Under the pieces are notes generated by a model. It made no database searches, had not been told where the DNA came from, and was given only the letters and a program-made list of their open reading frames with translations. From Escherichia phage EI-SP-GF, in sequence record OR992645.1: a DNA stretch of 64,000 nucleotides; one strand, 5' to 3'. Both the position numbers and the translations under genes were made by a program. Of this stretch, positions 6,677 to 43,800 are shown one piece after another; position 1 is the stretch's first letter, and every line of letters begins with the position of its first letter.

Positions 6677-6685
6677 TTTTGTTAA

Positions 6686-6720: not shown

Positions 6721-6735
6721 ACGAGGTATTTTCAA

Positions 6736-7356: not shown

Positions 7357-7362
7357 AAATTG

Positions 7363-7391
7363 TTGCTTTTGATGTATCTTTGTGGTAAAAT
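7363..7391 (+). promoter_or_regulatory. sigma70-like promoter TTGCTT-N17-TAAAAT with TGn extended -10
   Basis: ttgctt 7363-7368, 17-nt spacer ending tgg, taaaat 7386-7391; RBS gaggaa and ATG 7410 follow. Confidence 0.45.
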
Positions 7392-7409
7392 ACATTAGTG
7401 AGGAATATA

Positions 7410-7868: not shown

Positions 7869-7882
7869 AATAAGGGGGTTGA

Positions 7883-8308: not shown

Positions 8309-8859
8309 TGGAAGCTTTCGAAAAAGTTTTTTCTGATCTTGAAACAACCATCGCTAAGCTTGTCAAGGTTGCCACAGGAAGAACTGTAGTTCTGGCAGAA
8401 AGCTCTACCATACCGAAGCCGGAAGGTGAGTTTGTACTTTTGCAAACCCTGGCGATCAATCCCACCACTTGGGAAGATAATGAGTTTCAAGATGCGGAGG
8501 GTAATGCTTACGTCACCCACAGTTATACTGTTACTTATCTGTTAACAGCTTATCGCGGCAGGGCATATGCTGCACTTAGCAGAGTATTGCAAGCAATAAA
8601 CCTTCCAATGTTTTATGACAAGTATTTCCCTCTGGGATCGTGCTTTGCCTACTCTAACAATTCAACAATTTCACCTCAAAGGGTGCCGTTGAATAAGCAG
8701 ACGTATGAAAATAGAGCCACCGTAATGCTGACATTTAACGTAAGGTTTGTTGAGACAGACATTGGGGCTTTTGAGGATCTTCAGGGAATTAAGGCTGAAA
8801 TAACCACACACTTCCCTTCACCCAATTCTGGTAAAGCGGTTACAGACAGTGGTCAGTAA
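8308..8859 (+). CDS. tail completion / neck protein (hypothetical)
   Basis: 183-aa ORF, start overlaps previous stop (TGATGG), immediately upstream of sheath-like gene. Confidence 0.45.
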   Translation: MEAFEKVFSDLETTIAKLVKVATGRTVVLAESSTIPKPEGEFVLLQTLAINPTTWEDNEFQDAEGNAYVTHSYTVTYLLTAYRGRAYAALSRVLQAINLPMFYDKYFPLGSCFAYSNNSTISPQRVPLNKQTYENRATVMLTFNVRFVETDIGAFEDLQGIKAEITTHFPSPNSGKAVTDSGQ

Positions 8860-8874
8860 TCGTTATAATTGTGT

Positions 8875-8891
8875 AGTGTAATGATTACACT
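8875..8891 (+). promoter_or_regulatory. perfect 8-bp inverted repeat AGTGTAAT-g-ATTACACT downstream of a TATAAT box (8864-8869)
   Basis: palindrome read directly in the intergenic region before the sheath-like gene; candidate operator or RNA hairpin. Confidence 0.3.
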
Positions 8892-8931
8892 GCGTGTTTG
8901 ATATCCGTGCACAGATATTAAGAGGAAACAA

Positions 8932-10308: not shown

Positions 10309-10318
10309 GGAAGACTAG

Positions 10319-10792
10319 ATGGAAACTCAAATTTTAACTCCTTATGCTTATGACCCTAAAAAGGTCAAACTGTATCTGATGCAGCAGCGTGTCACTGGCT
10401 TCGCTGCTGACACCAAGATCGTTGTTTCAAGAAATGAAGACAACATCTACCCTCACGTTGGTGTGGATGGCGAAATGTCTGCGGCTCTGTCTCGTAACCA
10501 ATCTGGTGTTATGACTGTATCTTTGCAGAACACTTCTGTATGGAACGCCTACCTTTCCGACTGGCAGAAACAGGCATCAATTACTGGTCTGGTATTCTTC
10601 CCTGTTCTGCTGGAAGGTAGCCAGGGCCCTGGTATTGCCACAATCGGTTGGATCCAGAAACAGCCTGACCTGACTTATGGAACCGAAGTAGGTCAGCTGG
10701 ATTGGGATATCGGTATCCTGGATGCATGGCTCAACCGTGACAACATCACTGGTGCTCTCACTGGCCTCGCAGGTCTTGCAGGTATTATCTAA
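10319..10792 (+). CDS. tail tube protein
   Basis: 157-aa ORF between sheath-like gene and tail assembly chaperones, AAGGA RBS. Confidence 0.55.
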   Translation: METQILTPYAYDPKKVKLYLMQQRVTGFAADTKIVVSRNEDNIYPHVGVDGEMSAALSRNQSGVMTVSLQNTSVWNAYLSDWQKQASITGLVFFPVLLEGSQGPGIATIGWIQKQPDLTYGTEVGQLDWDIGILDAWLNRDNITGALTGLAGLAGII

Positions 10793-25093: not shown

Positions 25094-25684
25094 ATGTTTT
25101 TATGGGAAAGGCCTAGATACCTTCCAGATATTAGATTGGAGCTGCTGGCAGATATTGTTACGTTTAAAAGTCCGTTTACAGGTAAAACGCAAAAAGTGAC
25201 CTATGCCACACCTAACTGGAAAGGCACTTTGACGGTTTCCAATATCAGCGAGTCACAGTTGCTAGAGCTTAAGAGCTTTGTTGATCAGGTGTATAAAGAC
25301 GGGAACATTTTTCTTATTAAAACGTACGGTCACTCAGTAACAGCTAATGAGCCAATCGCCCTTGGGCCTACCGGTAACGACGATTTTTTGAAGACGGTCG
25401 GATGGGAGCCAAACAGAGACATAGCCAGAGCTGGGGATAAAATATCTGTTAACGATGAATTGAAAGTGGTAACAGCTCCAGTGCGCAGCGATGGTGTTGG
25501 GTCTGCTGTTATAAGCATATCTCCAAGACTTAGAAAACCTATTGCCGCAGGGGACACTATGAAGATAATAACTCAATCCCCAAAGGGTAGGTTTCATATC
25601 AGAGATATTTATAAAATTAAGCAAAAAGTCGATGCTATGCAAAAAGGTGATAATATAGTTATCAACTTCTTTGAGGATTTCTAA
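25094..25684 (+). CDS. tail tip assembly protein (lambda gpM / GTA g12 position, tentative)
   Basis: 196-aa ORF with GGAGG RBS, first gene of a four-gene run ending in the lambda J-like protein. Confidence 0.4.
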   Translation: MFLWERPRYLPDIRLELLADIVTFKSPFTGKTQKVTYATPNWKGTLTVSNISESQLLELKSFVDQVYKDGNIFLIKTYGHSVTANEPIALGPTGNDDFLKTVGWEPNRDIARAGDKISVNDELKVVTAPVRSDGVGSAVISISPRLRKPIAAGDTMKIITQSPKGRFHIRDIYKIKQKVDAMQKGDNIVINFFEDF

Positions 25685-25685
25685 G

Positions 25686-26237
25686 ATGATTAGAGCGCCA
25701 TTAGATAATTTATTTCTTGAAAAGCTGGAGCTTGATAGTGTTGAGATCTTAATTGCTGCAAAGCTAGAGCTACCAACAGGGACTGTCAGGGTGTGCTCAG
25801 GAACTGGTGTTGTGGTGATTGAGGGGCAACATTTTATAGGGATAGGTGGATCAGCAACATTGACTGCTGTGTCTGAGAAAGATGCTACCAACTTCGGATC
25901 TGTGGTAGCAACATTGAACGGATTTGATCCCAAGTATGTAGGTGATCTGCTGAAGACAGAGTATTCGGGTTGTCGTGCCACGTTGTATATCACAGCTATG
26001 GAGAATGGTTTACCTGTTACAACCAATGGCTTGTTTGACGGCCTTATAACAGACATGGCTATTCAGACAGGGGAGAATAGTGCTTTGTCCATATCCATAT
26101 CTTCCATCTTCAACAGCTGGTTAAGAGGTTTTCCTTATCGATACACAGAGGAGAGCCATAGCTCAAGAAACGATAATGACAGATTTTTTAAATATGTGGA
26201 TCAGGTGGCAAGCCGCCCGATCATTTGGGAGGTTTAA
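25686..26237 (+). CDS. tail tip protein (lambda gpL / GTA g13 position, tentative)
   Basis: ORF frame opens 25671; ATG 25686 follows upstream stop; position-based call. Confidence 0.4.
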   Translation: MIRAPLDNLFLEKLELDSVEILIAAKLELPTGTVRVCSGTGVVVIEGQHFIGIGGSATLTAVSEKDATNFGSVVATLNGFDPKYVGDLLKTEYSGCRATLYITAMENGLPVTTNGLFDGLITDMAIQTGENSALSISISSIFNSWLRGFPYRYTEESHSSRNDNDRFFKYVDQVASRPIIWEV

Positions 26238-26662
26238 TGAGCACACACCCTCGTTTAGTAGACTGGCAAGAAAGATTGTGGAAAGTGTTTGACGAAGAAG
26301 CTACCGTCCAGTTTGAATGGGGATTCCACGATTGTTGCACTTTTGCGGCTAAATGTGTTGATGCCCAATATGGAACAGATTTTCTTTCTAACTTTGAAGG
26401 AACGTATAAAACAGAGTTGGAAAGCAAGAGATGGTGCATGCTCCGTTTCAAAACCACCCACCTGCCTACTATTTTTGATCTCTTTTTGACTCGACTGGAT
26501 ACTCCTAAACAGGTTCAGCGTGGCGATATTGTTATTTTCGAAGGTCTGAACGGGCTCACCGCTGGTGTGTTCTGGAACAACCAGATTTGGGCGAAAGGTG
26601 ATAAGGGGATCTTTATGTTCGACATGAAAGATTCTATCGTTGTTGATGTCTGGAGGTATTAA
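26237..26662 (+). CDS. NlpC/P60-like tail tip protein (lambda gpK C-domain / GTA g14-like)
   Basis: EWGFHDCCTFAAKCV (Cys-containing motif) and RGDIVIFEG; catalytic His not evident; located directly upstream of J-like gene. Confidence 0.4.
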   Translation: MSTHPRLVDWQERLWKVFDEEATVQFEWGFHDCCTFAAKCVDAQYGTDFLSNFEGTYKTELESKRWCMLRFKTTHLPTIFDLFLTRLDTPKQVQRGDIVIFEGLNGLTAGVFWNNQIWAKGDKGIFMFDMKDSIVVDVWRY

Positions 26663-29600
26663 TGCCAATTGCAATGATTGATAACATCGTTGCTTCTGCA
26701 AGATCTTCGAGCTATGACTGGAACGCATCCAAGGCAGCTCTGGCTGACAGCCTGAACACTGTTACCACCAGAACCCTGGATAAGATTTTCGAAGGTAACA
26801 AATCTTACAGAAGTCAGCAAGATAGACAAAAGCTTCTCAGATCTTCTGCTGCACCTTGCTCTGTAGTGTATGGGAAGACACGCACATCTGGATTGCTTGC
26901 GTTTTTGGAGCAGGACAGGGACAGAACCCTTCATTGTGCTATTGTTCTTGCCAATCATCCCTTGGAAGGTATAGAAGATATACTTATCGACGGTAATCCT
27001 ATTTCCTCGTATGGGGATTTGGTATCGTGGGAGTTACATAACGACAGGAAAACCTCTGATCCTTTCATGGGTACACACTGCCCTTCGTGGTCACCAGACA
27101 TGATAGGTAGAGGGATCAGTTGGCTACGTGCCAGCTTTAAGTTTGACCCTAACAAGTTTCCTTTTGGGTTGCCAAACGTTACACTCGTCAAGGTTGGTAA
27201 AAAATGTTATGATCCTCGTATCAGTAAAGAGGTGTATACCAATAACGCTGCCTTGGTGATTCTGGACTACCTAAGAACGTACCTTAAATGTCCTGACGAA
27301 ACCATCAACTGGGAGTCCTTCAAGGAAGCTGCCAACATATGCGATGAGGCTGTAAAAAACGCGGACGGAACCAGTGAGCGCCGTTACACCATTAATGGCG
27401 AGTTCGACATGGATGAAGCACCAGCAAGCATTATGGCAGAGATGCTGAAAGCTTGTGGTGCAGACCTTAGCTATGTAGCTGGCAAATATGGTCTGCTGGT
27501 AGGTGCATACTATGGCCCGGCAACAATGACACTTAGCGAGAACTGTGTTTGCGGTGAGGTTAAGATCTATCCTGAAGCCTCCTTCGACAAAAGATCCAAC
27601 ACAATAACTGGCAGATTCACTAGTCCGGCCAAAGGGTATTCTGAAACAGATTTTCCATCAGTGTTTGTCCCAGAGTGGGTAGAGAAGGATGGAGAAAGAA
27701 AGATAATCGATATAGATTATCGCTTTGTTACCAGTCCTTATCAAGCTCAGCGTGTTTCTGCAATCTTCTTAAGACGTGCCAGAGCTGGTAGGATTATTGA
27801 AGTAACCTGCAATATGCGGGGTTTTAAATTTAAGCCTGGGCGTTACGTTACGATGGACCTCCCAAGTATTGGTATAGTGGGCCAAGAAATGAGGGTTCTT
27901 GAATGGGAGTTCACCAAAAAGGGCGGTGTCAAGGTAAAACTCCGTCAAGATGCTAAAGAGTGGAATGATGCCACAGGGCAACTTCCGGATTCTGGAGATG
28001 TGGATATTCCGATATCCCCGTCCGGCGTAGCTCAACCGCAAAACTTCAGATACTCTGTTCTTCAAGCTGGGGAAGTAACTCATGGTGTTTTGGCTTGGGA
28101 CAACGTTGGAACTTATGCTCAAAATATTGTGCAGGTAAGAAAGAACGGAGAGATTATTTGGACAGCACAGACAGTTGAGCAGTTTGTCCGCGTAGAAGGA
28201 TTGACCAAAGGGTCATACACAGCAACCGTGGTTGCAACATCTTATAAAGGTGGTGTATCTCCAGAAGCTTACTGCGAGTTTAACATTCAAGCACCTGAAG
28301 CTCCTGTTTCTGTAGAAGTTAAGCAGGGATACTTTGCTATCACCTTGATTCCGCACAGCAGGGACTTAGCAAGTGTAAGCACCCAGTATGATTTTTGGAC
28401 ATCTGGTATGACAAGGTTGCCGGACACAAGTGATGCAACCGTTACTTCAAAAGCCACCCGTATGGGTGTTGGTTCAACTTGGACATCTGAAGGTCTGCAG
28501 AACGATAAGATTTATTATTGGTATATTCGAACCACAAACGCTTTTGGTAGTTCTCAGTTTGTAGAATGCGCTGCACGCTGCTACACCTCTATTGAAGATT
28601 TGATGCCTCAGATAGATGCTGAATTTAAAAAGACAGAAACTTATAAAGAGTTGATGAGCACTTTAGATTCCTCTATCGAGGAGGTTGAAAATCGTGTCAC
28701 AGAGCTTAACAAGTACATGGACGGAAGGGTAGATGAGGCATTCCAACAACTTGGAGATAGGATAGGTGCGGTAGTTGCAGAGACAACTCAGAAGTTTGAG
28801 GATGTCAATGGTAATATCACAGCTCTGGATAGGAAACTTGTTGCTGCACAGAACAAGTTCACCAACGATCTGAACACTGAAAGTGGAAGACTGGCATCCC
28901 TGATCGAGACAACCAATAAAGCAACCACTGATCTTCTGAACAAAAAGACAGAGGCTTTAGACGAGAAATTGGTTGCAGCCAAAGGGGAGTTGGTAGAACA
29001 AATAAGTGGTGTGGAGAGCGGATACCTTGCCGGAGATAAAACTCTAGATGGCAAGATCAATACCCAGAGAACGGAACTTGATGCAAGCATCTTAAGCACC
29101 AACCAGGCGACAGTGGATCTTCTCAACAGGACATCTGAAACTTTGGATCAAAAGATCAGTCAGACAAACGCGACGGTATCTAAGAACTATACCACCCTTG
29201 ATGGTAAGATAACTACCGCAAAAACTGATCTCAATACCTTGATTGCCAATACCAACAAGGCCACCACAGATTTGTTGAATCAGAAAACCTCTGCACTGTC
29301 GGAGCAGATAACTTCTGCACGTGGAGAAATTTCTACCAACAAACAGGCGATTAAGGATTTGGATGGTAAGCTGACCTCCACAAAAACAGCACTGGACGCT
29401 ACAATCTCCGATACCAACAAAGCAACCGTGGATCTTATTAACGGCACAGCGTCAGCTATTCGTCAAGAACTTGCTGTTGCTAAGCAGGAGATCATTGATG
29501 ATGTCGGTGATGTGTCAGAGCTTAGAGCTGCAGTAGCTACAACATCTAAGGCTGTGACAGACTTAGAGGGCAAAGTAACTGCTCAATGGGGCACAAAAAT

Positions 29601-30501
29601 ACAGGTAGACTCCGCAGGGAATAAGTATGTGGCAGGTATCCAATTGGGCATGGAAGGCTCTGGAGGCCAAGTTCAATCATACTTCATGGTTAGTGCAAAC
29701 AACTTTGCGGTATACAACCCCGGAAATGGAACAGCAACCCTTGCTTTCGCAATCAAGAACAACCAAGCATTCTTGAAAGATGCTTTTATAGAGAACGGGA
29801 CGATCTCTTCTGCCAAGATTGCACAAGAAATTTCGTCTAACAACTACGATGGCAACGGGTACCATAAATACGGTTGGTATATTAACAAGAACGGACACGC
29901 CCAGTTTATGGATGTGTGGGTGAAAGGTAACATCAACGCTAGTGCAGGTAACTTCACAGGGGCAGTTAACGCTACCAGTGGCACTTTCCGTGGGGATGTT
30001 TATGCCAATAATGGTAGCTTTAGAGGCACCATAGATGCAACAGGAGGTACATTCCGTGGACGTGTAGAAGCTTCCGTTATCCGTGCTAACCAGTTCGAAG
30101 GTGCAATCGTTGCACATAGGACCTATGGTGACTGTCCTCCGGTATATAACTCGCAGCAGAGGGTTTGCCGTTGGAGGTGGAGATATGTGGACAACGTTTC
30201 AGGGCAAGGTAAGAACGTAACATTCTTCTTTAAACTAAACGGAACCTTGTCTGGCTCCCAGCTCAACGTTTGGATAGCCGGACATCAAATCCTTGCAGGT
30301 AAGAAGTACGGAAACGACAACAACGGCATGTGTGCGGTAGGGATAACTGGTCTCGGTGAACAAACCATAGACATTATCGTCGAGATATACACACCATGGT
30401 CAACGTCAAGCGTGACAGGAGTTACAATATCTTGTCCAACCGTAATAGTTAGTCGTTCAAACTCTAGCTTCCAGGGACCTTGGAACGAGTCTCATGACTA
30501 A
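26662..30501 (+). CDS. lambda gpJ-like host specificity / central tail fibre protein
   Basis: 1279 aa; FN3-region motifs PEAPVSVEVKQGYFAITLIPH...FW...YYWYIRTTNAFGSSQFVE and VQSYFMVSANNFAVYNPGNG...NNQAFLKDAFI closely parallel lambda J ([21 protein letters not shown]...YYFYIRSVNTVGKSAFVE; LSQFLVAANRIAFIDPANG). Confidence 0.8.
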   Translation: MPIAMIDNIVASARSSSYDWNASKAALADSLNTVTTRTLDKIFEGNKSYRSQQDRQKLLRSSAAPCSVVYGKTRTSGLLAFLEQDRDRTLHCAIVLANHPLEGIEDILIDGNPISSYGDLVSWELHNDRKTSDPFMGTHCPSWSPDMIGRGISWLRASFKFDPNKFPFGLPNVTLVKVGKKCYDPRISKEVYTNNAALVILDYLRTYLKCPDETINWESFKEAANICDEAVKNADGTSERRYTINGEFDMDEAPASIMAEMLKACGADLSYVAGKYGLLVGAYYGPATMTLSENCVCGEVKIYPEASFDKRSNTITGRFTSPAKGYSETDFPSVFVPEWVEKDGERKIIDIDYRFVTSPYQAQRVSAIFLRRARAGRIIEVTCNMRGFKFKPGRYVTMDLPSIGIVGQEMRVLEWEFTKKGGVKVKLRQDAKEWNDATGQLPDSGDVDIPISPSGVAQPQNFRYSVLQAGEVTHGVLAWDNVGTYAQNIVQVRKNGEIIWTAQTVEQFVRVEGLTKGSYTATVVATSYKGGVSPEAYCEFNIQAPEAPVSVEVKQGYFAITLIPHSRDLASVSTQYDFWTSGMTRLPDTSDATVTSKATRMGVGSTWTSEGLQNDKIYYWYIRTTNAFGSSQFVECAARCYTSIEDLMPQIDAEFKKTETYKELMSTLDSSIEEVENRVTELNKYMDGRVDEAFQQLGDRIGAVVAETTQKFEDVNGNITALDRKLVAAQNKFTNDLNTESGRLASLIETTNKATTDLLNKKTEALDEKLVAAKGELVEQISGVESGYLAGDKTLDGKINTQRTELDASILSTNQATVDLLNRTSETLDQKISQTNATVSKNYTTLDGKITTAKTDLNTLIANTNKATTDLLNQKTSALSEQITSARGEISTNKQAIKDLDGKLTSTKTALDATISDTNKATVDLINGTASAIRQELAVAKQEIIDDVGDVSELRAAVATTSKAVTDLEGKVTAQWGTKIQVDSAGNKYVAGIQLGMEGSGGQVQSYFMVSANNFAVYNPGNGTATLAFAIKNNQAFLKDAFIENGTISSAKIAQEISSNNYDGNGYHKYGWYINKNGHAQFMDVWVKGNINASAGNFTGAVNATSGTFRGDVYANNGSFRGTIDATGGTFRGRVEASVIRANQFEGAIVAHRTYGDCPPVYNSQQRVCRWRWRYVDNVSGQGKNVTFFFKLNGTLSGSQLNVWIAGHQILAGKKYGNDNNGMCAVGITGLGEQTIDIIVEIYTPWSTSSVTGVTISCPTVIVSRSNSSFQGPWNESHD
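28860..29480 (+). repeat. in-frame tandem repeat region encoding repeated T-x-NKATTDLLN-x-KT/ TLDGKI coiled-coil units inside the J-like gene
   Basis: protein segments TNKATTDLLNKKTEALDEK / TNQATVDLLNRTSETLDQK / TNKATTDLLNQKTSALSEQ / TNKATVDLINGTASAIRQE recur about every 40 aa. Confidence 0.5.
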
Positions 30502-30605: not shown

Positions 30606-32096
30606 GTGGCTAAGTATGGATTGACAGAGGCTGGTTTCGTTATACCAACCCTAAATGACCTAATCGTTGAAACTAAGCAAAGCCTGATCCGTGCTTTTGG
30701 CGAAAACTTCAACGTACAGAGTAACTCCGTTGCAGATAAGCTGACCACTATCTTCAACGAGCGAGAGTATCAACTTATTCTTATGGCAGCATCTGTATAC
30801 GCATCGCAGACGCTGTATGGGGCAGAAGGTATTTACCTGGATGAGCTTCTTGGAAGACAGGGTATTTACCGAAGAGGCCGTTCTAAATCATCAGGTACCT
30901 GCCAGTTGACAATCAACACAACTGTGCCGTACAATATGATTTATGATTCCAAAACTTATACGCTGGACAGTGGCAACTTTGTTCTTAGCAACGATGTGCA
31001 GGTGGCGGGAAATCTTATTGCTCACAGAATAAACGCTCCAGACCTAAGAATTGGGAAATACAACTTTCAAATTACCAACCAGACAGACGGAAGTATCAAA
31101 ACAAAAAGTCTGGTTTTAACAGATAAGGCTCTGGACTCTTCTGATTTGCCAAGCTTTTACGGCGAGATTAAGCAATTCATTGTCGATAATACAACCCTGC
31201 TGAATGATGATTTAATTCAGATAGATATGTTGACAGGGACGTTGTGGATAGGGTACAATTCGAATCTTGATCAAGTTGGACTTAATAGCAGGGTAGATTT
31301 CAGAGTATCCCCGATTGTAGGGGAAAGAACTATCACCCTAGATGTTATCGCTAACGAGGCTGGTGAGCTGTCAAGAGAGGCAGAAACCGTGACAACAATG
31401 TCACCTACTCCCAGTGGATTTATCAAGCTTACCAACCGAGAAAGATTCAATGAGGGTAGGGATGTTGAGAAAGACTCTGAGTATCGCTTAAGAGCTTCCA
31501 GCACTAAACAGCTGACATCTAAAGCTACCCGTCCTGCAATCCTTAGCGCTGTAAGCGAGGTGAAAGGTGTTGAGAAAGTAAGAGTGTTCTCCAACAACAC
31601 CGATAAAACGGATGCGAAAGGTATACCACCTTATAAGTTTCAAGTGGTGGTGTTTGGTGGTGCAACAGAGGATATCTGTCAGGCGCTGTATCAAACCATA
31701 GCTTGCACAAACAGAACTTATGGGAATATCTTCTACGATATTACCACATCAGACGGTCAGACTGAAAGGATTTATTACTCCAAGGCAAATACCTACCGCC
31801 TAGATGTAAGAATTACCTACTCAGGTGCTGCGCTTTCCACAACCGAAAAAGATGCCATTGTAGAGGCTCTTTTACAGGTTGTTAACGGACTGGATGTTGC
31901 AGATACGTTGTACAATATCCAATTGGTTGGTGCTGCATCAGCTGCTGTGTCAATAGGCAGATTTAACAGACTTGTGATTCAAGTAAAACCTGTGGGAGCC
32001 TCTGATGAAGCTTACACTACAAACGATATTGTTGCAAACATGACTGAGGTGTTTGACCTAGACGAAAGTAATATAACTTTCCAACAAACTATTTAA
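30606..32096 (+). CDS. baseplate J-like wedge protein (P2 gpJ / T4 gp6 family, tentative)
   Basis: 496 aa, GTG start with GGAGG RBS; C-terminal half shows the same pattern as P2 gpJ (alternating hydrophobic strands, ...YNIQLVGAA...); followed by gpI-like gene. Confidence 0.45.
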   Translation: MAKYGLTEAGFVIPTLNDLIVETKQSLIRAFGENFNVQSNSVADKLTTIFNEREYQLILMAASVYASQTLYGAEGIYLDELLGRQGIYRRGRSKSSGTCQLTINTTVPYNMIYDSKTYTLDSGNFVLSNDVQVAGNLIAHRINAPDLRIGKYNFQITNQTDGSIKTKSLVLTDKALDSSDLPSFYGEIKQFIVDNTTLLNDDLIQIDMLTGTLWIGYNSNLDQVGLNSRVDFRVSPIVGERTITLDVIANEAGELSREAETVTTMSPTPSGFIKLTNRERFNEGRDVEKDSEYRLRASSTKQLTSKATRPAILSAVSEVKGVEKVRVFSNNTDKTDAKGIPPYKFQVVVFGGATEDICQALYQTIACTNRTYGNIFYDITTSDGQTERIYYSKANTYRLDVRITYSGAALSTTEKDAIVEALLQVVNGLDVADTLYNIQLVGAASAAVSIGRFNRLVIQVKPVGASDEAYTTNDIVANMTEVFDLDESNITFQQTI

Positions 32097-32107: not shown

Positions 32108-32794
32108 ATGGCAGAGATTAAGTCGGATGTCAACCACATCCACACTCTGCCAGATTTTGTTCAGGGAGGTCTTGATTACCTGCCTGGAGATTTTCTGGCT
32201 GAGAAGGTTAATTTAGTCACATTCTTAACCGTGTACCTTAAAAGGTTGGAGGATGTTGATAAAATGCTGGTAGGCTTGGCTGAAGGAAGATTGCTTAACA
32301 ATGCCAGCGGGAGATACCTTGACGAAGTTGGTAATCAACTCGGTATTCTTCGGAATGGGCTTTCAGATGCGGATTTTCGTGCTACCCTGGTTATTCAGCA
32401 AGCAGCAGCATCAAGGGGTGGGACTCGCGAAGATGTCATCTCCACCTTGCGACAATTGTTCGGAAGAGACAATTTCGATACGTGGAAAGGTGACAATTTC
32501 AGGTTTGACATAAACATTAGAAAAACTTGCTTTGACATATTGCAGTCTATCGACCAGATCTTAGATATGCTGCCATTGCCTTGTCATTTGCGTCTTACGG
32601 AGTCGCAAGGGCAAGCTTTTGGTTTTGAAGGGGACTCTACAGCTCTCGGCTTCGGATCAGTGTGGGAAGAAAACCAGTTCGGGGTTGGTGGGCTGGCTAC
32701 TTTGTTATATGTTCCTGACGTAAGACCTGATTGGGATACCACAACTATTTATTGTGAAAGTATTACAGTAAACGCAACTAGACAGGAGGGTTAA
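32108..32794 (+). CDS. baseplate wedge protein (P2 gpI-like, tentative)
   Basis: 228-aa ORF immediately after baseplate J-like gene. Confidence 0.4.
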   Translation: MAEIKSDVNHIHTLPDFVQGGLDYLPGDFLAEKVNLVTFLTVYLKRLEDVDKMLVGLAEGRLLNNASGRYLDEVGNQLGILRNGLSDADFRATLVIQQAAASRGGTREDVISTLRQLFGRDNFDTWKGDNFRFDINIRKTCFDILQSIDQILDMLPLPCHLRLTESQGQAFGFEGDSTALGFGSVWEENQFGVGGLATLLYVPDVRPDWDTTTIYCESITVNATRQEG

Positions 32795-34866
32795 TGGCAA
32801 CAGCTGTTTTTAAACCTTACCGTGATTACTCTACAATGGCTGCACGGTTTCATTACCGCACAGTTCAGGATACTGCAGTTCCGGGTAGGGATTATGATCA
32901 TGTTGAGGGCGATGTAACTATCCCGGTTGGGGCAACCAGTATTGAGATCCCTGTAGAAATTGTTGACAAATTGCCAAACAGGTTGCCAAGAAGCTTCTTT
33001 ATGGAGTTTTCATCAAACTCCCAAGGGGTTATGATTGGAACACAAAGAGCGAAATGTACAATAGTTTCAGATGAGAATCTTGACAGAATATCTTGGGATA
33101 CCGTTGAGGAGAGAATGTTTCACCCAAGATACTGGGTTACAACCACACAGCAGACTGAAAGCACCTGTATTGTTGCGGATAATAACTGCTGTATTAACCG
33201 TTTAGTGTCAAGAACATATGGGGGCATGGCTGGGTGCATTTGGGAAACAGTTGACAAGTATGACCATTTCGGCATTGGATTTGATGATCACTACGAGATG
33301 AGAAACACCAAGCTTTGGTTCAGAATGTCAATAACCAATGCCAGCAACTTCTCCACCCCTGAAAAGATGATTATGACTGTAGACCTTGTTGATGGTACAA
33401 TCATCTATGTTCCTTTAGCTCAATATGCTGTCAGCATCTCAGAGGATAAGAATGTTGCAGAAATTCATATTGATTTCGAGGACTGCGTCGGGATGGACCA
33501 GAACAACAACATGATGGGTGTTGATCCTCGGCAGGTGAGAAGGATTCTAATACCACTTATGCCTAAAGATTGGGTAGGTAATAGCACAGACCCGAGAACG
33601 GAAAATGTAGAGTGTGAGTTGCGTCTAGATCTTCTTCAGCCGGACACAGGCTGGAAAATGATGCAACTTAACAATATTCAGGTGAAAGAACACGATGTTG
33701 GGATCTGCACAGCATATGACGATATGTGGAACGTATCCCCTTTAAGGGTGTTGAGCAATATCAAGCGTCTGGGCTATACAGGAACCATAAACCATTATGT
33801 TGGTATGAGCCATTATTATGACTACACATGGTCAGGAACCCAATGGTCTATAAACAAAACAGGAGCTCTAAACGCTGCAGCTTATAAATGGCATGATGAT
33901 TTTATGTACAATGCCAAACGACATGACTTCGACGTTATGCAGTCTGTAAGCTTTGAGCTTTATAGCGATGCCTGTCCGTTGGAATGGACCCAGAGAGACT
34001 GGAACGATAACTATGCTAAAACAGGCTATACGCCTTGTAGTTACCTCCTGTCTCCAACCATTGAAGAGGGCATGAATTTCCTTACTGCAGTATTTAAGAA
34101 TTTTGCATCAGCCGCTATGAGAAACAACCTGCCAGTGATTATGCAGATTGGTGAACCGTGGTGGTGGTTCAATACCGATACTCGTAAGCCTTGTATTTAT
34201 GACTACCCTACAAAGCAGGCGTTTTATGATGAGACTGGTGAATATGCACTAGACATTGGGACTATTGACGATCCTAAAACTGGCGGTGTTTATGACAAGT
34301 ATGTAGCATTTTGTCGTGGTAAGCTTGGCGCTCGTATTGCAGCCATTTCAAAGGCAATAAAAGCACACGCTGCATCGGCTCAGATGACAGCTTTACTGTT
34401 TTTCCCCACTATTATGGAAACCGAGCTTACGCAAAAACTGAACCTTGCTGACCAATATAAAAAGGAAGCAGGTGCTCTTGATTTCTTCTGCACTGAGTGC
34501 TACGATTGGGTGATGCAGGGAGGTATTGAAAAGGCAAAAGAGTCTGTAAACATACCTATCGTTAAGTTAGGTTGGAAACCGTCTGAAATACAATACCTTG
34601 CAGGGTTCGTTCCTAGCAAAGAGCTTGCTCCGGTATATGGCTACGACCCAACCAGGAATTACCAAGAATTTTTATGGAGATGTATTTGCGGAAACATGGC
34701 AACCATAGAGTATAGATACCCTGAGGTAAAACAGTATGTGTGGGCATACCCGCAAGTAATGTCTGACAGCATCACTGTTACCGCCAGAGATTCTACTGTT
34801 CTGCATATGGGGCAGGTTGCTCTGAAAGGGTATGTAGAAGATGTTGTTCCGCCAGACTTCTCATAA
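32794..34866 (+). CDS. tail-associated protein with N-terminal Calx-beta-like domain and large C-terminal domain (possible glycoside hydrolase / TIM-barrel)
   Basis: N-terminus VPGRDYDHVEGDVTIPVGATSIEIPVEIVD resembles Calx-beta motif; C-terminal region Trp-rich (GEPWWWF); enzymatic role is inference. Confidence 0.45.
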   Translation: MATAVFKPYRDYSTMAARFHYRTVQDTAVPGRDYDHVEGDVTIPVGATSIEIPVEIVDKLPNRLPRSFFMEFSSNSQGVMIGTQRAKCTIVSDENLDRISWDTVEERMFHPRYWVTTTQQTESTCIVADNNCCINRLVSRTYGGMAGCIWETVDKYDHFGIGFDDHYEMRNTKLWFRMSITNASNFSTPEKMIMTVDLVDGTIIYVPLAQYAVSISEDKNVAEIHIDFEDCVGMDQNNNMMGVDPRQVRRILIPLMPKDWVGNSTDPRTENVECELRLDLLQPDTGWKMMQLNNIQVKEHDVGICTAYDDMWNVSPLRVLSNIKRLGYTGTINHYVGMSHYYDYTWSGTQWSINKTGALNAAAYKWHDDFMYNAKRHDFDVMQSVSFELYSDACPLEWTQRDWNDNYAKTGYTPCSYLLSPTIEEGMNFLTAVFKNFASAAMRNNLPVIMQIGEPWWWFNTDTRKPCIYDYPTKQAFYDETGEYALDIGTIDDPKTGGVYDKYVAFCRGKLGARIAAISKAIKAHAASAQMTALLFFPTIMETELTQKLNLADQYKKEAGALDFFCTECYDWVMQGGIEKAKESVNIPIVKLGWKPSEIQYLAGFVPSKELAPVYGYDPTRNYQEFLWRCICGNMATIEYRYPEVKQYVWAYPQVMSDSITVTARDSTVLHMGQVALKGYVEDVVPPDFS

Positions 34867-34878: not shown

Positions 34879-35919
34879 ATGTCAAAACCTAGTTTTCCAT
34901 TAGAGATTTGGGCAGAGGAGGATCAGGTTCTGCCTAACACCCACAGACAGAACAGGCTACGCCCGATTGATGATTTGTGGAGAAAAGGTTGGGATCTTGG
35001 TCAAAAGCCGTCATGTGAAGAACTTAACTATATTTTCAATATGCTCGGGACTTGGGCAAAATATATTGCTGACGAGCAGATCCCCGCCCAAGAGGGCCGT
35101 TATCTGGTACGTGATAATAACCTGAGCGATCTTCTGAACATTCCTGTCGCCCGTAGAAACCTTGGGATTATTACTAAGGAAGAGGCAGACGCCAGGTATG
35201 TAAAAGTTACAGGAGATACAATGACAGGCCCCTTAGGTTTGCAGCGTATCAACTTTAAAGCTGCCGAGACAGATAAGGCTTGGATAGAGACAACTATTGG
35301 TCCAGATAAGACAACTCTCGACTTTGGGTTAAGTGATAACACTGGGGCGTTTGATGATGGTGGCACATCTACAGTAGATGCGTTTCGTTGGAGATTCCAG
35401 CCAACTCAGCCAGACATTAATCCAGAGTTCACTTTGATGTACCTGAACGCGATCACGGCTAACCGTGCGCTGTTGAAAGTGGTAGGTAATGTTGAAGTTG
35501 TCGATAACATGCGGTGTAACAACCTTACCATCAGCAGCACAGCAACATTCACCAACTGTAATGTGGCTAGTCAGTTGACAGCTGGGTCCGTATATGTTAA
35601 TGGCGGCGCAAGTTGTGACAGTATGGTTGTAAGAAGCCAGCATTGTGTTGTCGGTAACAGAAATGTGGTGCGCTCTGTGAATGGAGTGACGGCTAACGGT
35701 AACGGCGATGTAACGATCACCATCCCGCAGACAGGGGTACAGGATATCAGAATCGGTGCAAGACTTGTTGATGGTGTTTCTGAATCTCCAGTTCGCAACG
35801 GCTACGTTGTCACAGGTTGGCATTTTGGTGATAAAAAAGAGATGCGTGGTTCAACCTACTGGGCAGGACCTTTACAAAAACTTGTAAATGGTCAATGGAT
35901 CACTGTTAATTATGCGTAG
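34879..35919 (+). CDS. tail fibre protein (short fibre, copy 1)
   Basis: 346 aa; TGDTMTGPL fibre motif; paralogous to 36935-37978; followed by Tfa chaperone. Confidence 0.7.
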   Translation: MSKPSFPLEIWAEEDQVLPNTHRQNRLRPIDDLWRKGWDLGQKPSCEELNYIFNMLGTWAKYIADEQIPAQEGRYLVRDNNLSDLLNIPVARRNLGIITKEEADARYVKVTGDTMTGPLGLQRINFKAAETDKAWIETTIGPDKTTLDFGLSDNTGAFDDGGTSTVDAFRWRFQPTQPDINPEFTLMYLNAITANRALLKVVGNVEVVDNMRCNNLTISSTATFTNCNVASQLTAGSVYVNGGASCDSMVVRSQHCVVGNRNVVRSVNGVTANGNGDVTITIPQTGVQDIRIGARLVDGVSESPVRNGYVVTGWHFGDKKEMRGSTYWAGPLQKLVNGQWITVNYA

Positions 35920-35933
35920 ATCGGAGGACTAGC

Positions 35934-36518
35934 ATGAAAATACTTCAAGAGTTTAAACTTTACCAACCGGGATCTGGCGAATACTACACCAACAAGGAGA
36001 CCAAGGAGCTGACTCCTCAGGAGGTTGAGGATTACACAGCATACACTGGATATTTTTTACGTAATGATGATGGCGATTGGTATGTGCAATCACGAACACT
36101 GCGACAAGAAAATCCCGGCTGTATCTTCTTACTTGTTGACGAGAAGGGTATTCTTAAGACATCTACAGAAGAACCTGATGCCTTGTGGCCTGCTCCAGGT
36201 CTTCGTGTGGTTATCGCCAAAAAAGAAGAGGTACCAGAAAACATTATGCTCCACCACGACGCTTTGCGTTTAGTTGGTGATGAATTTGTCACAGACAATG
36301 AATTCTTTGTTCAACAGGCAGAGGGTGTCATAGAGACAGAACTTGCTTGGGCTACTGCTAGAATTGGTGCCTATCAAGACATGATTGACCTTGAATACGA
36401 TCTTACTGATGACCAAAAACGCAACATCAGAGATTTGAAAATGTACAGGGTAAAACTTCTTGAAATAGATACATCTAAAGCCCCTGACATTTTCTTCCCG
36501 GAACGACCTACCCTCTAA
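35934..36518 (+). CDS. tail fibre assembly protein (Tfa / P2 gpG-like chaperone)
   Basis: C-terminal motif QKRNIRDLKMYRVKLLEIDTSKAPDIFFPERP matches the conserved Tfa C-terminal signature (..YR..L..vDts.APdI.WP..P). Confidence 0.75.
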   Translation: MKILQEFKLYQPGSGEYYTNKETKELTPQEVEDYTAYTGYFLRNDDGDWYVQSRTLRQENPGCIFLLVDEKGILKTSTEEPDALWPAPGLRVVIAKKEEVPENIMLHHDALRLVGDEFVTDNEFFVQQAEGVIETELAWATARIGAYQDMIDLEYDLTDDQKRNIRDLKMYRVKLLEIDTSKAPDIFFPERPTL

Positions 36519-36529
36519 GAGGAGGTGTT

Positions 36530-36844
36530 GTGGAGTTGGATTTGGCGGCATTGTACGGTATCTGCATGGGTACCGTTGTCCCGATCTGTGTATGGGCTTT
36601 CAACCAGTGGCACACCAAATGGAAAGGTATTTCCAAGAGGTTGGATGAGCTGGAGAAAGACCTCATTTTAGTGAAAAATAGCATGGTTACAAAAGATAGA
36701 CTTGATTCCATTATCGAGACCCGGTTAAGTAAGCTAGAGGCCGATATTAACGACCTTAAGCAAGATGTCAGGACAGATGTCTCCGGTATCCGAGCTGATG
36801 TACAAAAGATTTTGCACATGCTTGTAGAGCATAGTAAAAGGTAA
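36530..36844 (+). CDS. small membrane protein with N-terminal TM helix and coiled coil (holin/spanin-like candidate)
   Basis: 104 aa, GTG start with AAGAGGAGG RBS; hydrophobic LAALYGICMGTVVPICVWAF then charged coiled-coil. Confidence 0.4.
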   Translation: MELDLAALYGICMGTVVPICVWAFNQWHTKWKGISKRLDELEKDLILVKNSMVTKDRLDSIIETRLSKLEADINDLKQDVRTDVSGIRADVQKILHMLVEHSKR

Positions 36845-36874
36845 ACAAAGGTAAGAACGGTAAGGATGCCGTTC

Positions 36875-36903
36875 TTGCATTTTGTTCTCTAAAGTGTTAA
36901 AAT
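36875..36903 (+). promoter_or_regulatory. sigma70-like promoter TTGCAT-N17-TAAAAT with TGn, overlapping a weak upstream hairpin (36855-36874)
   Basis: ttgcat 36875-36880, 17-nt spacer ending tgt, taaaat 36898-36903. Confidence 0.45.
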
Positions 36904-36934
36904 AGTCCTTAAGGAATTTTCTCAGGAGAATGTG

Positions 36935-37978
36935 ATGACTAAACCAGTTATCCCTCTCGATATTTGGGCCAATCAGGATGTTGTGCTTGAAAATACAGGA
37001 GAGTTGAACAAGTCTCAACCGAACAAAGAAGAGAGATTGAAAGGTTGGGATATGACACAAAGGATAGCATGTGAAGTTGTTAACTTTGAACTCCACATGC
37101 TCTCTGCGTGGCTAAAGCATTTAACAGAAGATGTTGTCCCTGGATGGGATAATAGATTCTTAAGGGTCACTAATAATCTGGCAGACGTTCCAGACAAAGC
37201 TGCTGCACGTAAAGTCCTCAATGTATACTCGCCTGAAGAAATGGATGACCTGTATGTTGACAAGACTGGGGACACAATGACCCAGACTCAAACTTTGGGT
37301 CTTCAAAGAATCGAGTTTGCATCCGCGTCAACAGACAATGCAGCGATATACACCACCATAACTCCAGACAAAACGATGATGGATTTCTGGATTATGGACA
37401 ACATCGGCGGCGCTGACGGCACAGACCTTGATGATCCTTCTCACCAAATAGACGGTTTCCGTTGGAGATTTCAACCTTCTGGTGGGCAGCCTGTGTTTTC
37501 GGCTATGAAGCTTAATGCTATAACTGCCAACCGTGCAAGACTGGCTATCCAAGGGAATCTTGAATGCAATGATGCAAAAAGCTCCTCTGCAAATGCTAAT
37601 GCGGTAACGATACCAAGAGCCACTGTTAATGGACAACAATCCTGCGGCAGCGCTCAAATAGGTGGAAGAGTGGATTGTAACGATAACACCGCCAGGGGTC
37701 AATATGCAACAGTTGGTGGGAGAAACGTGGTCCGCAGGGTAAATGGTAGTAGCGCAGATAGCAGTGGTAACCTTACTATTCCTATGCCTAGTAGGGGTGT
37801 TGAAGATGTAAGGATAGCAAACCGTTTCAGAACCACCTACAGAGAATCAAGAGTATACCCTGGGCATGTAATGTGCTCCGGCAATTACGCCTATAAACAC
37901 CCGTATCAAGGCGACTATTGGACTGGTGCCATTCAAAAATTTGTAAACGGTCAATGGATCACTATATCTTATGCTTAA
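36935..37978 (+). CDS. tail fibre protein (short fibre, copy 2, paralog of 34879-35919)
   Basis: N-terminus PLDIWANQDVVLEN / KTGDTMTQTQTLGLQRIEF and C-terminus ...FVNGQWITISYA align with copy 1 (...LVNGQWITVNYA); ATG 36935 preferred over GTG 36932. Confidence 0.7.
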   Translation: MTKPVIPLDIWANQDVVLENTGELNKSQPNKEERLKGWDMTQRIACEVVNFELHMLSAWLKHLTEDVVPGWDNRFLRVTNNLADVPDKAAARKVLNVYSPEEMDDLYVDKTGDTMTQTQTLGLQRIEFASASTDNAAIYTTITPDKTMMDFWIMDNIGGADGTDLDDPSHQIDGFRWRFQPSGGQPVFSAMKLNAITANRARLAIQGNLECNDAKSSSANANAVTIPRATVNGQQSCGSAQIGGRVDCNDNTARGQYATVGGRNVVRRVNGSSADSSGNLTIPMPSRGVEDVRIANRFRTTYRESRVYPGHVMCSGNYAYKHPYQGDYWTGAIQKFVNGQWITISYA

Positions 37979-40057: not shown

Positions 40058-40834
40058 ATGCTTCCAATCCCTTTGCTAAAACTTGGTCGTCATTTCCTCG
40101 ATAAGAGGGGTGGAGTTAAGGAACTTGCTGTTCTGTCATACCCAATAGACAACAGTGACGGTACAAGCACTACAGTAGCCTATGTAAATAGCTTAGCTAT
40201 ACTTTTTGACGATGGTCAGCTTAATATTACTGGCTATAACAAGTTCGGGGAGTGTCGCACTGGGGATCGTAACCCTATAAACTACCCGAGCGAGACGGCC
40301 TGGAATGTTGATCATGTGTGGAGAGCAGACCGTGCGTTTGTGATCCGGACTTTTGATAACCAGTTTTTCTACATCGGCTGCACTGCAGGTCTTATCGGAT
40401 CCACTGCGGCAGGTGGTAACGATGTTTGCGTAAACGAGTGGACACCTCTTCCGGAACAGATTGTTAAAGGATTGCACCTTGACACCCACCCAGAGCGCCT
40501 TATTGAGGTAATGGGAGGTATTAACAACACTGTCTGGGTTATTGCAGAGGCAGAAGGTACTGGCATACTGAACCTGTATGGGTCTGGTAACAACACCTAC
40601 GGATCTTTACATGTAGATAAAAACCAGCATGCAACTCCTGTAAAGATTGGTGAAACATCAGAAAATCCTGAAACAGGCCCTTGGAAAAACCCAAGTATCA
40701 ACTGCGAGGTGCATGACAACTCTGTTATTTTCGGTGGGCCTAGAGGTTTTTGGATTGCTGGATACGACTTTCTGAGAAACAACAGTAGAAACGACCTTGT
40801 TTGGCCCCTGCTCAGATTACTCGCAACGATTTGA
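40058..40834 (+). CDS. RCC1-like beta-propeller repeat protein (possible N-terminal part of the following giant protein)
   Basis: 258 aa with GxNxxGxLG-like repeats (YGSGNNTYGSLHVD); ORF ends inside the start region of the 1626-aa ORF in another frame. Confidence 0.5.
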   Translation: MLPIPLLKLGRHFLDKRGGVKELAVLSYPIDNSDGTSTTVAYVNSLAILFDDGQLNITGYNKFGECRTGDRNPINYPSETAWNVDHVWRADRAFVIRTFDNQFFYIGCTAGLIGSTAAGGNDVCVNEWTPLPEQIVKGLHLDTHPERLIEVMGGINNTVWVIAEAEGTGILNLYGSGNNTYGSLHVDKNQHATPVKIGETSENPETGPWKNPSINCEVHDNSVIFGGPRGFWIAGYDFLRNNSRNDLVWPLLRLLATI

Positions 40835-40869
40835 AAGGCATTCCTGCAGATGAGGAGTGGAAAGGATTC

Positions 40870-43800
40870 ATGTGTGGTCCGAACGGGGCGATAATTGCAA
40901 CGCAGAGGATGCACAAGCCTAATGATCAGCAACTTGTTAACGTATTCTACGGGCAAGATGTCTGGGGAGATGATACATGGCGTTCCTTAAATATTACCTA
41001 CACCCATGAAGTAATAATGGCTCGTGGGTACGGAACAAGTGGCATTTTCTTCAATAATGGTACTAAGCAGTATCGCGGATTCTCTCGCAACCTGTGCAAC
41101 GATATTGGAGCACAATCTGCAAACAATAATCCTCGCGCCAATTTTATCCATTATCAAGCTCTTGCTACAGCCAAGTATGTTGAGCAACGACTGCCAGTTA
41201 GCTGGACAGAGAGTGTTTACTTCCAGGGTATTCATAGAGAAGGTTTTTTAGGGACCTTTACCGTTGTTAATGGCAAACTTTGGTGGTCAGGCATCCCAAG
41301 GGGAAGTTTTGCAGGATCTAATAACCTGTTTGGCGGCAGACTTAACAGCCAGGGGTTCACAGAGGTTCCTGAGAATTGGTATAAAAATGTCCCAGTAGAT
41401 AGTTGGGATATTGATGATATTTTTGACGTTAACGGTGTTAGCAGTGTTAGCAATATTTACATCGGTGACACGGTCAAGATGAAATTGAAGCCTCAACCAG
41501 AGGGGGCCACGTTCATTATTGACAAGATTGAACTGGTAAATGCTGCAGGCACGGTTGTTACAGATGCAAATTACCAATTCTCCACCAACTGGAACCACGG
41601 CGGGGCCAACGAGGTTGTTGTTACTCAGTATAACAGAAATGTTAACAGACGCGGTCTGTACTCTGTAAAAATAACCTATCATGACAAGCATGGCACGGGC
41701 AGAACTCACACAACAAGGACTTTGAACTGGAACACTATAGTTCCTGCGTATCCGTCTGATGGTAAATGGCACACTGTAGGCAGAAACAAACAGTTCCATG
41801 TTAACGATACTGTGTACTTTGGGCTTAACGCTGCTCAGCCAGCTCCAGAAAGCGATACAGCGTATATGGTTCGGCTGCACAGGCAAGATGCTGGGTCTGT
41901 TACCTACGATGTGACCCAAGAGATCTACAATCAGAGACGCTCCACGTATGACAATATTGTGAAAACACAAGCCTTGTGGGAGTTCAACCCTAACGGCAAA
42001 GGTGGTAAAATGTTGCAGGTTAACGAGCAAAACGGAACATCGTTAACTGTCCACGAACACCCAGACCCTTGGCCTGACCCTGGTAAACCTAACTCAGGTG
42101 CTCGCACACTGCAAGTTGTCAGTCATGATGTAGGCTATTTTGGGATACGTTGGGAGGCCACAGTAAAATATGCCGATGGGACAACAAACAACATAGGGAT
42201 TACGCTTGGTGGCACTAGTGAGAGTAACTCGCTGAAAATTGCCTACACTCCTAGAGGTATCTCTATTGACAACATGGATATAGTCCGTAACGGTTACGGA
42301 GATGTAAACATCAAAGTTACTCTTGGTGAGCATCTTGGCGGAGAAAGGATCATTATGTATGCCTTTGATCATGACCCTCGAACCAACGGAACTTATGCAA
42401 ATCAGGCCTGGAGTTACCTGATAAGTGCACCTGAGCCGAATACTAAAGAATTCTACTACGGTATGAAGCGAGATGTGTGCAAGAAAACAGGAACACACGA
42501 CTGGATTGCTATCTGTGTTAAAGATGAGAGAACAGCTTGGGATGAGCCTGTTAACCGCTGGTTCATAGGTATTCCCACCAGAAGTGATAAATACGTTGAA
42601 GAATATATTGTATGTATGGGCGGCACCAACCTCAACATGTGTTGGAACGAGGACGCAAACAAATATTCTGATTATGACTATATGAGGGACTACTCTTGTA
42701 ATCAATGGTTCAACCAATCCGGGTATGCTAATAGACAGTCAAGGGTAAACCCTGCAATCTTCACAGATACGCAGGTTTTCTTGACAAAACAGGCCAACGA
42801 GGTTCAGACCTTCAAGAACAACTATGATCCTAACAAGTGGTTCTACAACTGTTCCGGAGCAATATTCTGGGGGCCTGGTGAACTGCCTGATAGTGGTTCT
42901 TGCTTCGAGGCTGCAACCTATGGCAGTGACTATATTATGGGGCAGGTCAAGAAGTACAAGATGATTCCAGGACCTGAAACTTTAGGTAATGCTGTTGACC
43001 CGTACATAAATTTCGCAGCTATACATGCTAATATGGATGGAGAGAGATATCCGTTTGTTGTTCCGTTAACTTGGGGGTACAAACGTGTCGTGATGATTAT
43101 TAAATGCGATCTGATCGGGAAGCAAGTTCTTGCAGAAAATGGAACATCCACACACCCTTTTGAAGTTGCTCTGCACTACCAGTTTGCAGACTCACCATAT
43201 GCAGGGGATAAAAGAATATCCGACACAGACTCTAAGCGCTGTAAGAAAGTTTTACTTGGAGCCGGGTGGTGGTGGTACGAGTTTGATTTGACAGATAAGT
43301 TCACAGATGATACCAAAACTCTCACAGGTATCCGTCTGGACCTTGGTGAGAACATGCATAAAAGTGTTTGTGATGGTACCTACGGTGACCCTACGGTATA
43401 TCTAAAGTATGTTTCTCTTGAGCATCGCGAAGAGGATGTTTACGGTCCAAAACTGAGATTGTTTGGCGCATGGATTGCCAAAGACAGAGTAGGTATGGGT
43501 AAGAAGGTGAGAGGCTTCTTGATAGATGTAGGGACAGAGGACATGCTGGTTAATGCAGTATGGCCTGAATTACCCGGAACTCAGTGGAACAACTCTGCCA
43601 AATCTATAAACTGGTACAATATTCACAGAGCTATGTGGACCACTAACTGCTACTTGTGGAGAGAGCTTAACGATCAGGCCTTTGGCTTTAGTAACGGCAG
43701 AAGGATGGCGATCATTTGCTGGACAACATTGCAAAGATGTTATGACCATGACTATGAGATTGGTGGTAGGGCATGGAAAGATATCAGGGACAGAGTTATA

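Follow-up and report, generated by a model that had tools for sequence, protein, structure and literature searches.

In Escherichia phage EI-SP-GF (sequence record OR992645.1), the 690-aa tail protein encoded at positions 32794–34866 of the 64,000-nt stretch analysed here, which we call the window, is in our estimate (a probability of roughly 0.65) the peripheral-baseplate receptor-binding protein of Vequintavirus for the NGR ("N4 glycan receptor") exopolysaccharide, with a β-sandwich and a barrel domain that bind and probably cleave this polymer. The original prediction, made from the DNA letters of the window, had proposed a baseplate-attached module that binds or degrades carbohydrate, and this proposal is supported both by the predicted fold and by the literature on the orthologs phi92 gp142 and rV5 gp34 as NGR receptor-binding protein (PMC8594841, PMC8669472, bioRxiv 10.64898/2026.04.02.716166). 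The protein is already known in substance, through Pfam families, solved structures of N4 homologs and a published receptor-binding assignment for Vequintavirus and Justusliebigvirus phages, and the finding in the window is itself a re-identification.

Sellner et al. found that N4, the Vequintavirinae and phi92-like phages need wecB and nfrB, and not the rest of the enterobacterial common antigen (ECA) pathway, which points to the NGR glycan (PMC8669472). In phi92, gp142 was named the NGR receptor-binding protein on the basis of a 59–76-aa similarity to N4 gp65 that contains the motif GMSHY and was read as convergent (bioRxiv 10.64898/2026.04.02.716166); homology to N4 Gp64 had been noted earlier, and the shared region was then labelled a poly-GlcNAc deacetylase domain on the basis of Phyre2 (PMC8594841). 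In the published comparisons, the three NGR-dependent groups N4, Vequintavirus and Justusliebigvirus have this tail protein, and no other tail component, in common (PMC8669472, PMC8594841, bioRxiv 10.64898/2026.04.02.716166). Phages that target NGR evade the O-antigen barrier, and the range of hosts they infect is unusually broad; their receptor-binding protein therefore matters for host-range prediction and phage engineering. Our analysis could sharpen the published picture in that the element shared by N4 and rV5 would be a whole module, acquired by descent or transfer, rather than a short convergent motif, and in that this module resembles a glycoside hydrolase (GH) rather than a deacetylase.

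Predicted fold and candidate active site

Three domains of the 690-aa protein are modelled confidently by AlphaFold2 (pLDDT 94): a Calx-β β-sandwich, a β-sandwich resembling a carbohydrate-binding module (CBM), and a glycoside-hydrolase-like (β/α)8, or TIM, barrel that is followed by a short C-terminal β-hairpin (Table 1). The original prediction had described a Calx-β-like segment and behind it one domain of roughly 550 aa with hydrolase character. The former is confirmed by the Calx-β sandwich of the predicted structure. In the latter the hydrolase character stands, carried by the barrel, while the single domain resolves into the CBM-like sandwich and the barrel, and then the hairpin. Measured against a Pfam gathering cut-off of 27 bits for each of the three families, the barrel clearly matches PF23845 (TIM-barrel_NCTSP; 269.2 bits, E 6.7e-80, aa 299–658 against model positions 2–346 of 348), and the second domain likewise exceeds the cut-off for PF23844 (NCTSP_N). 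The match to PF03160 (Calx-beta) reaches 25.6 bits, just below the cut-off, yet the modelled domain has the Calx-β sandwich fold; the phi92 ortholog scores 38.1 bits. A match to NCBIfam was not found for the 690-aa protein. The same order of Calx-beta, NCTSP_N and TIM-barrel_NCTSP is seen in the Justusliebigvirus and Vequintavirus orthologs phi92 gp142, rV5 gp34 and FV3_00034.

The structure prediction and fold search proposed as a check on the original prediction support its interpretation. Apart from N4 Gp64, all of the protein's nearest structural neighbours are active glycosidases, and the neighbours include GH29, Cwp19, GH14, GH164 and GH5 enzymes. Rather than a purely structural β-sandwich without a pocket, the model contains a TIM barrel with near-invariant carboxylates and aromatics on the usual active-site face.

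Conservation was assessed with an exhaustive search for the barrel domain (E ≤ 0.001), which yielded 326 representatives at 50% identity in carrier proteins of 155 to 2,953 aa; residue counts refer to 139 of these 326, and strand positions were assigned by DSSP on the AlphaFold2 model. The conserved residues include an Asp-Asp pair (D309-D310) and three glutamates, E388, E454 and E568 (Table 1), and further conserved barrel positions are Y335 (127/130), Q451 (135/137), N550 (126/129) and W650 (121/124). Each of these residues, like the other conserved ones in Table 1, lies at the C-terminal end of a barrel strand or just past it. These strand ends form the catalytic face of TIM-barrel enzymes, and the end of β4 holds the acid/base in most TIM-barrel glycosidases. 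The conservation of E388, E454 and E568 and their position in the model favour catalysis, and all three are direct targets for mutagenesis. In the scheme of clan GH-A, the acid/base Glu lies on β4 and the nucleophile Glu on β7; E454 is indeed found at the end of β4, but the end of β7 is occupied by G604-F605, and the near-invariant E568 sits on β6. With Gly-Phe at the β7 position, the barrel family probably does not follow the clan GH-A scheme, and the second catalytic carboxylate may be either E568 (β6) or E388 (β3).

The motif GMSHY, at the end of β2, has been reported as a k-mer predictive of NGR use (2026 preprint, bioRxiv 10.64898/2026.04.02.716166). From the 60 closest homologs it had appeared to be invariant throughout the family, a reading that we rejected since in the wider sample the exact string is present in only 45 of 139 representatives, and only G337 and S339 are near-invariant. 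It is found in Sphingomonadales and Deinococcus homologs as well. At the level of sequence, GMSHY is therefore a marker of a subfamily of the module and not a demonstrated NGR contact.

As for the Calx-β domain, the acidic Ca-binding cluster in the distal loops of CBD1, a Calx-β domain of the Na/Ca exchanger NCX (DDD..EE), is mostly replaced (IVDKLPNRLP here versus IIDDDIFEED in CBD1), so that the domain lacks this signature. In its replaced cluster it is similar to the Calx-β domain of integrin β4, which is not known to bind Ca. Judging from the modularity described below, the domain is likely a phage-specific attachment or spacer piece.

Kinship with the N4 sheath and exchange of anchors

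The tail sheath of phage N4 was resolved using cryo-electron microscopy (cryo-EM) as a gp64:gp65 heterodimer (PMC13434306), with gp65 as the major and gp64 as the minor component (PDB 9LC0, 9YF4, 9YF5). A phmmer search against the PDB matches aa 355–659 of the window's protein to N4 Gp64 109–407 (E 1.4e-24), and BLASTP aligns aa 302–359 with gp65 375–429 at 36% identity. When the family profile is run against the PDB, the matches to the two chains do not overlap: gp65 is matched at profile positions 15–117 and 202–266, and gp64 at 279–575. Pfam divides the N4 proteins in the same manner, since gp65 contains NCTSP_N and positions 4–46 of the barrel model (aa 374–416, GMSHY included), and gp64 contains positions 60–347. 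The non-overlapping, complementary matches therefore indicate, by sequence comparison, that the likeness between the window's protein and N4 is homology of a module of ~550 aa, comprising sandwich and barrel, and not convergence on a short motif. By the same comparison, the module is divided in N4-like phages, such that gp65 carries the sandwich and β1-α1-β2, with the remaining part of the barrel on gp64; the heterodimer interface of N4 gp64:gp65 is probably the barrel itself.

A split of the same gp65/gp64 type, with complementary Pfam coordinates, recurs in Delftia phage RG-2014, which is only distantly related. Single-chain forms are found in siphophage Halfdan (gp05), in the Autographiviridae phage Alpheus (gp39) and in 60 of 60 close homologs, the segment lengths being nearly invariant. 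The junction of the split falls in the β2-α2 loop, the most length-variable of the internal loops. We note that several representatives, such as P0237 (402 aa) and P0249 (331 aa), show a barrel match that starts only at query position ~58–61, which is the boundary of N4 gp64; split forms are thus possibly recurrent beyond the N4-like phages examined.

The N4 sheath shares with the window's protein the CBM-like sandwich and the TIM barrel, together with the near-invariant DD, G-x-S, E388, GEPWWW and E-x-YDW, and N4, like Vequintavirus, needs NfrA, NfrB and WecB in its host. In contrast, the sheath has no Calx-β domain and is mounted around the tube of a podovirus tail, not on the baseplate of a contractile tail. 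N4 gp65 is also longer by about 970 residues, with domains up to D10, which contact the tail plug (PMC13434306). Homology to the N-terminal part of gp65 and to gp64 is found, whereas the two-chain heterodimer arranged six-fold around a non-contractile tube is not; the window's protein consists of one 690-aa chain and belongs to a phage with a contractile tail, and the name "sheath" therefore does not fit it. Two features of gp65 were seen in passing: for the ~950 residues behind the β1-β2 segment (aa ~430–1382) Pfam gives nothing at E ≤ 0.01, though the cryo-EM paper gives 10 domains, and the stretch IIWGQGDQDA resembles, by eye only, an SGNH/SASA-type esterase motif.

The sandwich-plus-barrel core is attached to different anchors in different tails. 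In the window's phage and in phi92-like phages the anchor is Calx-β, and among the anchors compared only rV5- and phi92-like phages use it. In Sphingomonadales the core is fused to the distal tail protein Dit/DUF2460, which matches the Dit of RcGTA (PDB 6TBA), and in Deinococcus to a CarboxypepD_reg-like domain. Halfdan gp05 carries the core at the Tal position after Dit, Alpheus gp39 is a tail protein carrying it, and in an E. coli element the core is fused to DUF7941, an N-terminal adaptor common with neighbouring fibre genes. The Dit/DUF2460, DUF7941, Halfdan and Alpheus homologs thus share the NCTSP_N and TIM-barrel core with near-constant segment lengths, while the anchor differs with the type of tail. 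Such anchor swapping is usual for the cargo domains of receptor-binding proteins or depolymerases, an analogy that supports the view of Calx-β as an attachment piece.

The E. coli element, which is chromosomal (positions 1–10613 of a contig of GCA_025812035.1), contains three adjacent fibre-type genes with a common DUF7941 N-terminal domain. Among these, the 870-aa product has NCTSP_N and the TIM barrel, another has DUF285, and a Phage_tail_fib gene and a chaperone lie between them; the group looks like a cassette of several receptor-binding proteins on a common adaptor.

Proposed receptor binding, probable cleavage and competing explanations

If the protein is the NGR receptor-binding protein, its N-terminal Calx-β domain would anchor copies at the periphery of the baseplate, an attachment that we infer from gene position only, beside the co-translated wedge proteins, and the sandwich and barrel would bind NGR chains protruding through the O-antigen layer. 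The barrel pocket, comprising E388, E454, E568, D309/D310 and the strand-end aromatics, would probably cleave the NGR polymer, so that the virion could move along the chain as far as the outer membrane. There, the Mu-S-like short fibres would bind the core of lipopolysaccharide (LPS) and trigger contraction. More tentatively, the module may be an uncharacterised glycoside-hydrolase family that depolymerises NGR, with the N4 sheath being the same enzyme split between gp65 (β1-β2 with DD and G-x-S) and gp64 (β3-β8 with the three Glu) and the barrel as the interface; both types of phage would then chew NGR down to the NfrA export pore.

Several observations weigh against binding and cleavage of NGR by this protein. 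The geometry of the pocket is taken from secondary-structure positions only, and with Gly-Phe at the β7 nucleophile position of clan GH-A the catalytic mechanism is not readable by analogy. Profile-profile comparison reveals no sequence relationship to E. coli PgaB (hhalign probability 0.75%). The mass-spectrometry table of the rV5 virion holds no gp34 peptides, although with only 19 proteins it is too shallow to show absence, and gp142 goes unmentioned in the 2026 cryo-EM paper on phi92, where fibre II has no assignment. Neither the 690-aa protein nor phi92 gp142 nor N4 gp64/gp65 has a reported biochemical activity. Finally, N4 gp65 is reported to bind the protein NfrA (PMC13434306), so that the ligand could be a protein and not a glycan.

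The main competing explanation, which we hold to be doubtful but serious, is a non-catalytic, lectin-like adhesin that binds NGR or the NfrA exporter and cleaves nothing, the acidic residues serving ligand binding or folding. It agrees with a family in which enzymatic activity has been reported for no member, with the description of the N4 homologs as a structural sheath and an NfrA-binding receptor-binding protein, with the missing carboxylate at the β7 position, and with the related domain of PgaB being in part a polymer-binding groove. However, the three Glu and the Asp-Asp pair are kept across phages of very different hosts, where ligand contacts should diverge, and the nearest structural neighbours besides N4 Gp64 are all active glycosidases. 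We find each of the remaining readings less likely than such an adhesin. That the module targets another polymer (ECA, poly-N-acetylglucosamine, colanic acid or the LPS core), NGR dependence being conferred by another tail protein, is unlikely: it would suit an NGR assignment made by comparative genomics only, the five or more further fibre or spike proteins that the tail-gene cluster encodes and the occurrence of the module family in phages whose hosts are not known to produce NGR, but in the published comparisons no other tail component is common to N4, Vequintavirus and Justusliebigvirus, and ECA is excluded genetically, as these phages need neither wecA nor the rest of the wec operon (PMC8669472).

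A tail fibre that deacetylates a poly-GlcNAc-type glycan, as the BASEL paper labelled it, seems to us very improbable. The label goes back to Phyre2 (PMC8594841) and was repeated in PMC8669472 and in the 2026 preprint, and the best enzyme match, PgaB, is indeed named a deacetylase. The structural matches, however, involve PgaB's C-terminal hydrolase domain (6au1, 4p7o, 4p7q), and neither profile nor fold comparison gives a CE4 or SGNH signal in the 690-aa protein; the published label is therefore probably a misnomer. The likeness to this C-terminal domain of PgaB/BpsB (GH153) has its limits as well. Identity to the window's protein is 7%, sequence similarity to GH153 was not found, and PgaB has a single Asp (D474) without a second catalytic carboxylate, whereas the window's family has three near-invariant Glu; moreover, PgaB is a periplasmic bacterial enzyme and not a virion protein. 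We give equally little credence to a baseplate component that is structural only, retains a relic enzyme fold and plays no part in recognising the host. The location within the baseplate wedge operon and the very high degree to which the gene is conserved in the genus, in contrast to the variable fibre genes, would speak for it, but W70, from a related genus with the same baseplate, has no such gene at this position, the phi92 gene lies elsewhere, and the pocket residues are strongly constrained family-wide.

The legend of BASEL Figure S5C puts the deacetylase fibre near alignment position 8,000, i.e., in the gene for an 865-aa protein, while the gp64 homolog lies ~13 kb further along. The position in the legend appears to be wrong, the gp64 homolog being the 690-aa ORF (open reading frame). 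We had considered the 865-aa protein (18555–21152) as the published deacetylase-domain fibre and rejected it, as it is not similar to the 690-aa protein and gives no Pfam match. This "tail protein" is the ortholog of rV5 gp42 and phi92 gp141 (PHROG 2871).

The gene, its neighbours and its distribution

The ORF is present where the original prediction had it (32794–34866, + strand, ATG start, 690 aa), and it adjoins the 3′ side of the gpI-like gene (32108–32794), again as proposed; on its own 3′ side the short tail fibre gene and the chaperone gene come next. The two strings quoted there are also found, GRDYDHVEGDVTIPVGATSIEIPVEIVD at aa 31–58 and GEPWWWF at aa 453–459. The description of the large domain as Trp-rich holds only modestly: Trp makes up 2.8% of the whole protein and 3.6% of the barrel, versus 1.8% in the other long + strand ORFs of the window, a real enrichment but a small one. 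The start codon shares a nucleotide with the TAA stop of the gpI-like gene (TAATG), an overlap that suggests translational coupling to this baseplate gene.

Table 1. Features of the 690-aa gene and its neighbours (window coordinates; residue counts among the barrel representatives described in the text)
Feature	Position	Strand	Basis
Complete gene, 690-aa tail protein, ortholog of rV5 gp34 / FV3_00034 / phi92 gp142	32794..34866	+	ATG start; ORF list and translation
Ribosome-binding site AGGAGG, 4 nt 5′ of ATG	32784..32789	+	Direct sequence reading
Domain 1, Calx-β β-sandwich, aa 1–100	32794..33093	+	Calx-β fold in the model; Pfam Calx-beta aa 17–91
Domain 2, CBM-like β-sandwich, aa ~101–298	33094..33687	+	Pfam NCTSP_N aa 108–284, E 1e-12
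Domain 3, glycoside-hydrolase-like (β/α)8 barrel, aa 299–660	33688..34773	+	Pfam TIM-barrel_NCTSP
D309-D310, YDD motif, loop after β1	33718..33723	+	D309 122/127, D310 115/127
GMSHY, aa 337–341, end of β2	33802..33816	+	G337 129/131, S339 129/135; M338, H340, Y341 variable
E388, end of β3, candidate catalytic or ligand-binding carboxylate	33955..33957	+	137/138; kept in N4 gp64 (SVAYE)
GEPWWW, aa 453–458, end of β4; E454 candidate general acid/base	34150..34167	+	E454 135/137, W458 134/137; identical in N4 gp64
E568-C-Y570-D571-W572, end of β6; second candidate catalytic carboxylate and Tyr-Asp pair	34495..34509	+	E568 126/129, Y570 126/128; N4 gp64 IEDYDW
Context: Baseplate_J-like wedge gene	30606..32096	+	Pfam Baseplate_J; PHROG 6 and PHROG 4056 (both wedge genes together)
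Context: gpI-like baseplate wedge gene	32108..32794	+	PHROG 6 and PHROG 4056 (both wedge genes together)
Context: short tail fibre, Mu-S/T4-gp12-like	34879..35919	+	PHROG 4465 and PHROG 136, Pfam Caudo_TAP (fibre/chaperone block 34879..37978); FV3 annotation
Context: tail-fibre assembly chaperone	35934..36518	+	Same PHROG/Caudo_TAP basis; FV3 annotation
Context: paralogous short fibre	36932..37978	+	Same PHROG/Caudo_TAP basis; FV3 annotation

The tail sheath, tube and baseplate genes of this contractile-tail phage are orthologous to those of phi92, and the wedge in the phi92 cryo-EM structure is built from gp145 and gp146, the orthologs of the window's J-like and gpI-like proteins (PMC13450770). 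On the 3′ side, rV5 gp33 and gp30 have been described as T4 gp12-like (PMC3606486). In phi92, however, gp142 is not placed 3′ of the gpI-like gene but between gp141 and the endosialidase gp143, the protein being otherwise the same, and in the Septuagintavirus W70 a fibre gene directly follows the gpI-like gene. The 690-aa gene is therefore an accessory insertion rather than a core baseplate gene.

The 8 kb around the gene match Escherichia phage vB_EcoM-ECP26 with 98.5% identity, and identity is 90% or higher for more than 110 rV5-like (Vequintavirus) genomes. The protein itself is 100% identical to the vB_EcoM-ECP26 product and 95–100% identical in 116 phage records, and it shares 41–43% identity over 99% of its length with proteins of phi92-like and Phapecoctavirus phages. 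Existing annotations of the orthologs include "hypothetical protein", "CalX-like domain containing protein", "non-contractile tail sheath" and "potential tail fiber protein with glycosidase activity". The name "Campylobacter phage" is attached to 21 of the tblastn matches, a host label that looks doubtful: the listed records (MG065635, MG065654, MG065658 and MG065647; C12, C15, C7 and D#) are unannotated, give Campylobacter or C. jejuni as host and over this region share 95–98% identity with rV5-like phages of E. coli.

Further features of the tail-gene cluster were noted outside the 690-aa gene. The giant Ig-like fibre gene FV3_00027 (rV5 gp27; a single gene of 5,634 nt, 1,878 aa) has an ortholog in the window that is split into the ORFs 40058–40834 and 40801–45681. 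The split results from a 1-nt deletion in a run of C (GGCCCC in the window versus GGCCCCC in FV3; junction near 40804–40808), for which a homopolymer sequencing error and a real frameshift are both possible. We also note, at 25094–30501 within this myophage fibre cluster, a siphophage-style tail-tip cassette that consists of a Dit-like protein (PHROG 1302), a tail protein, a DUF6950 protein and a 1,279-aa λ-J-like protein with Ig_J and Phage_Tail_Tip domains.

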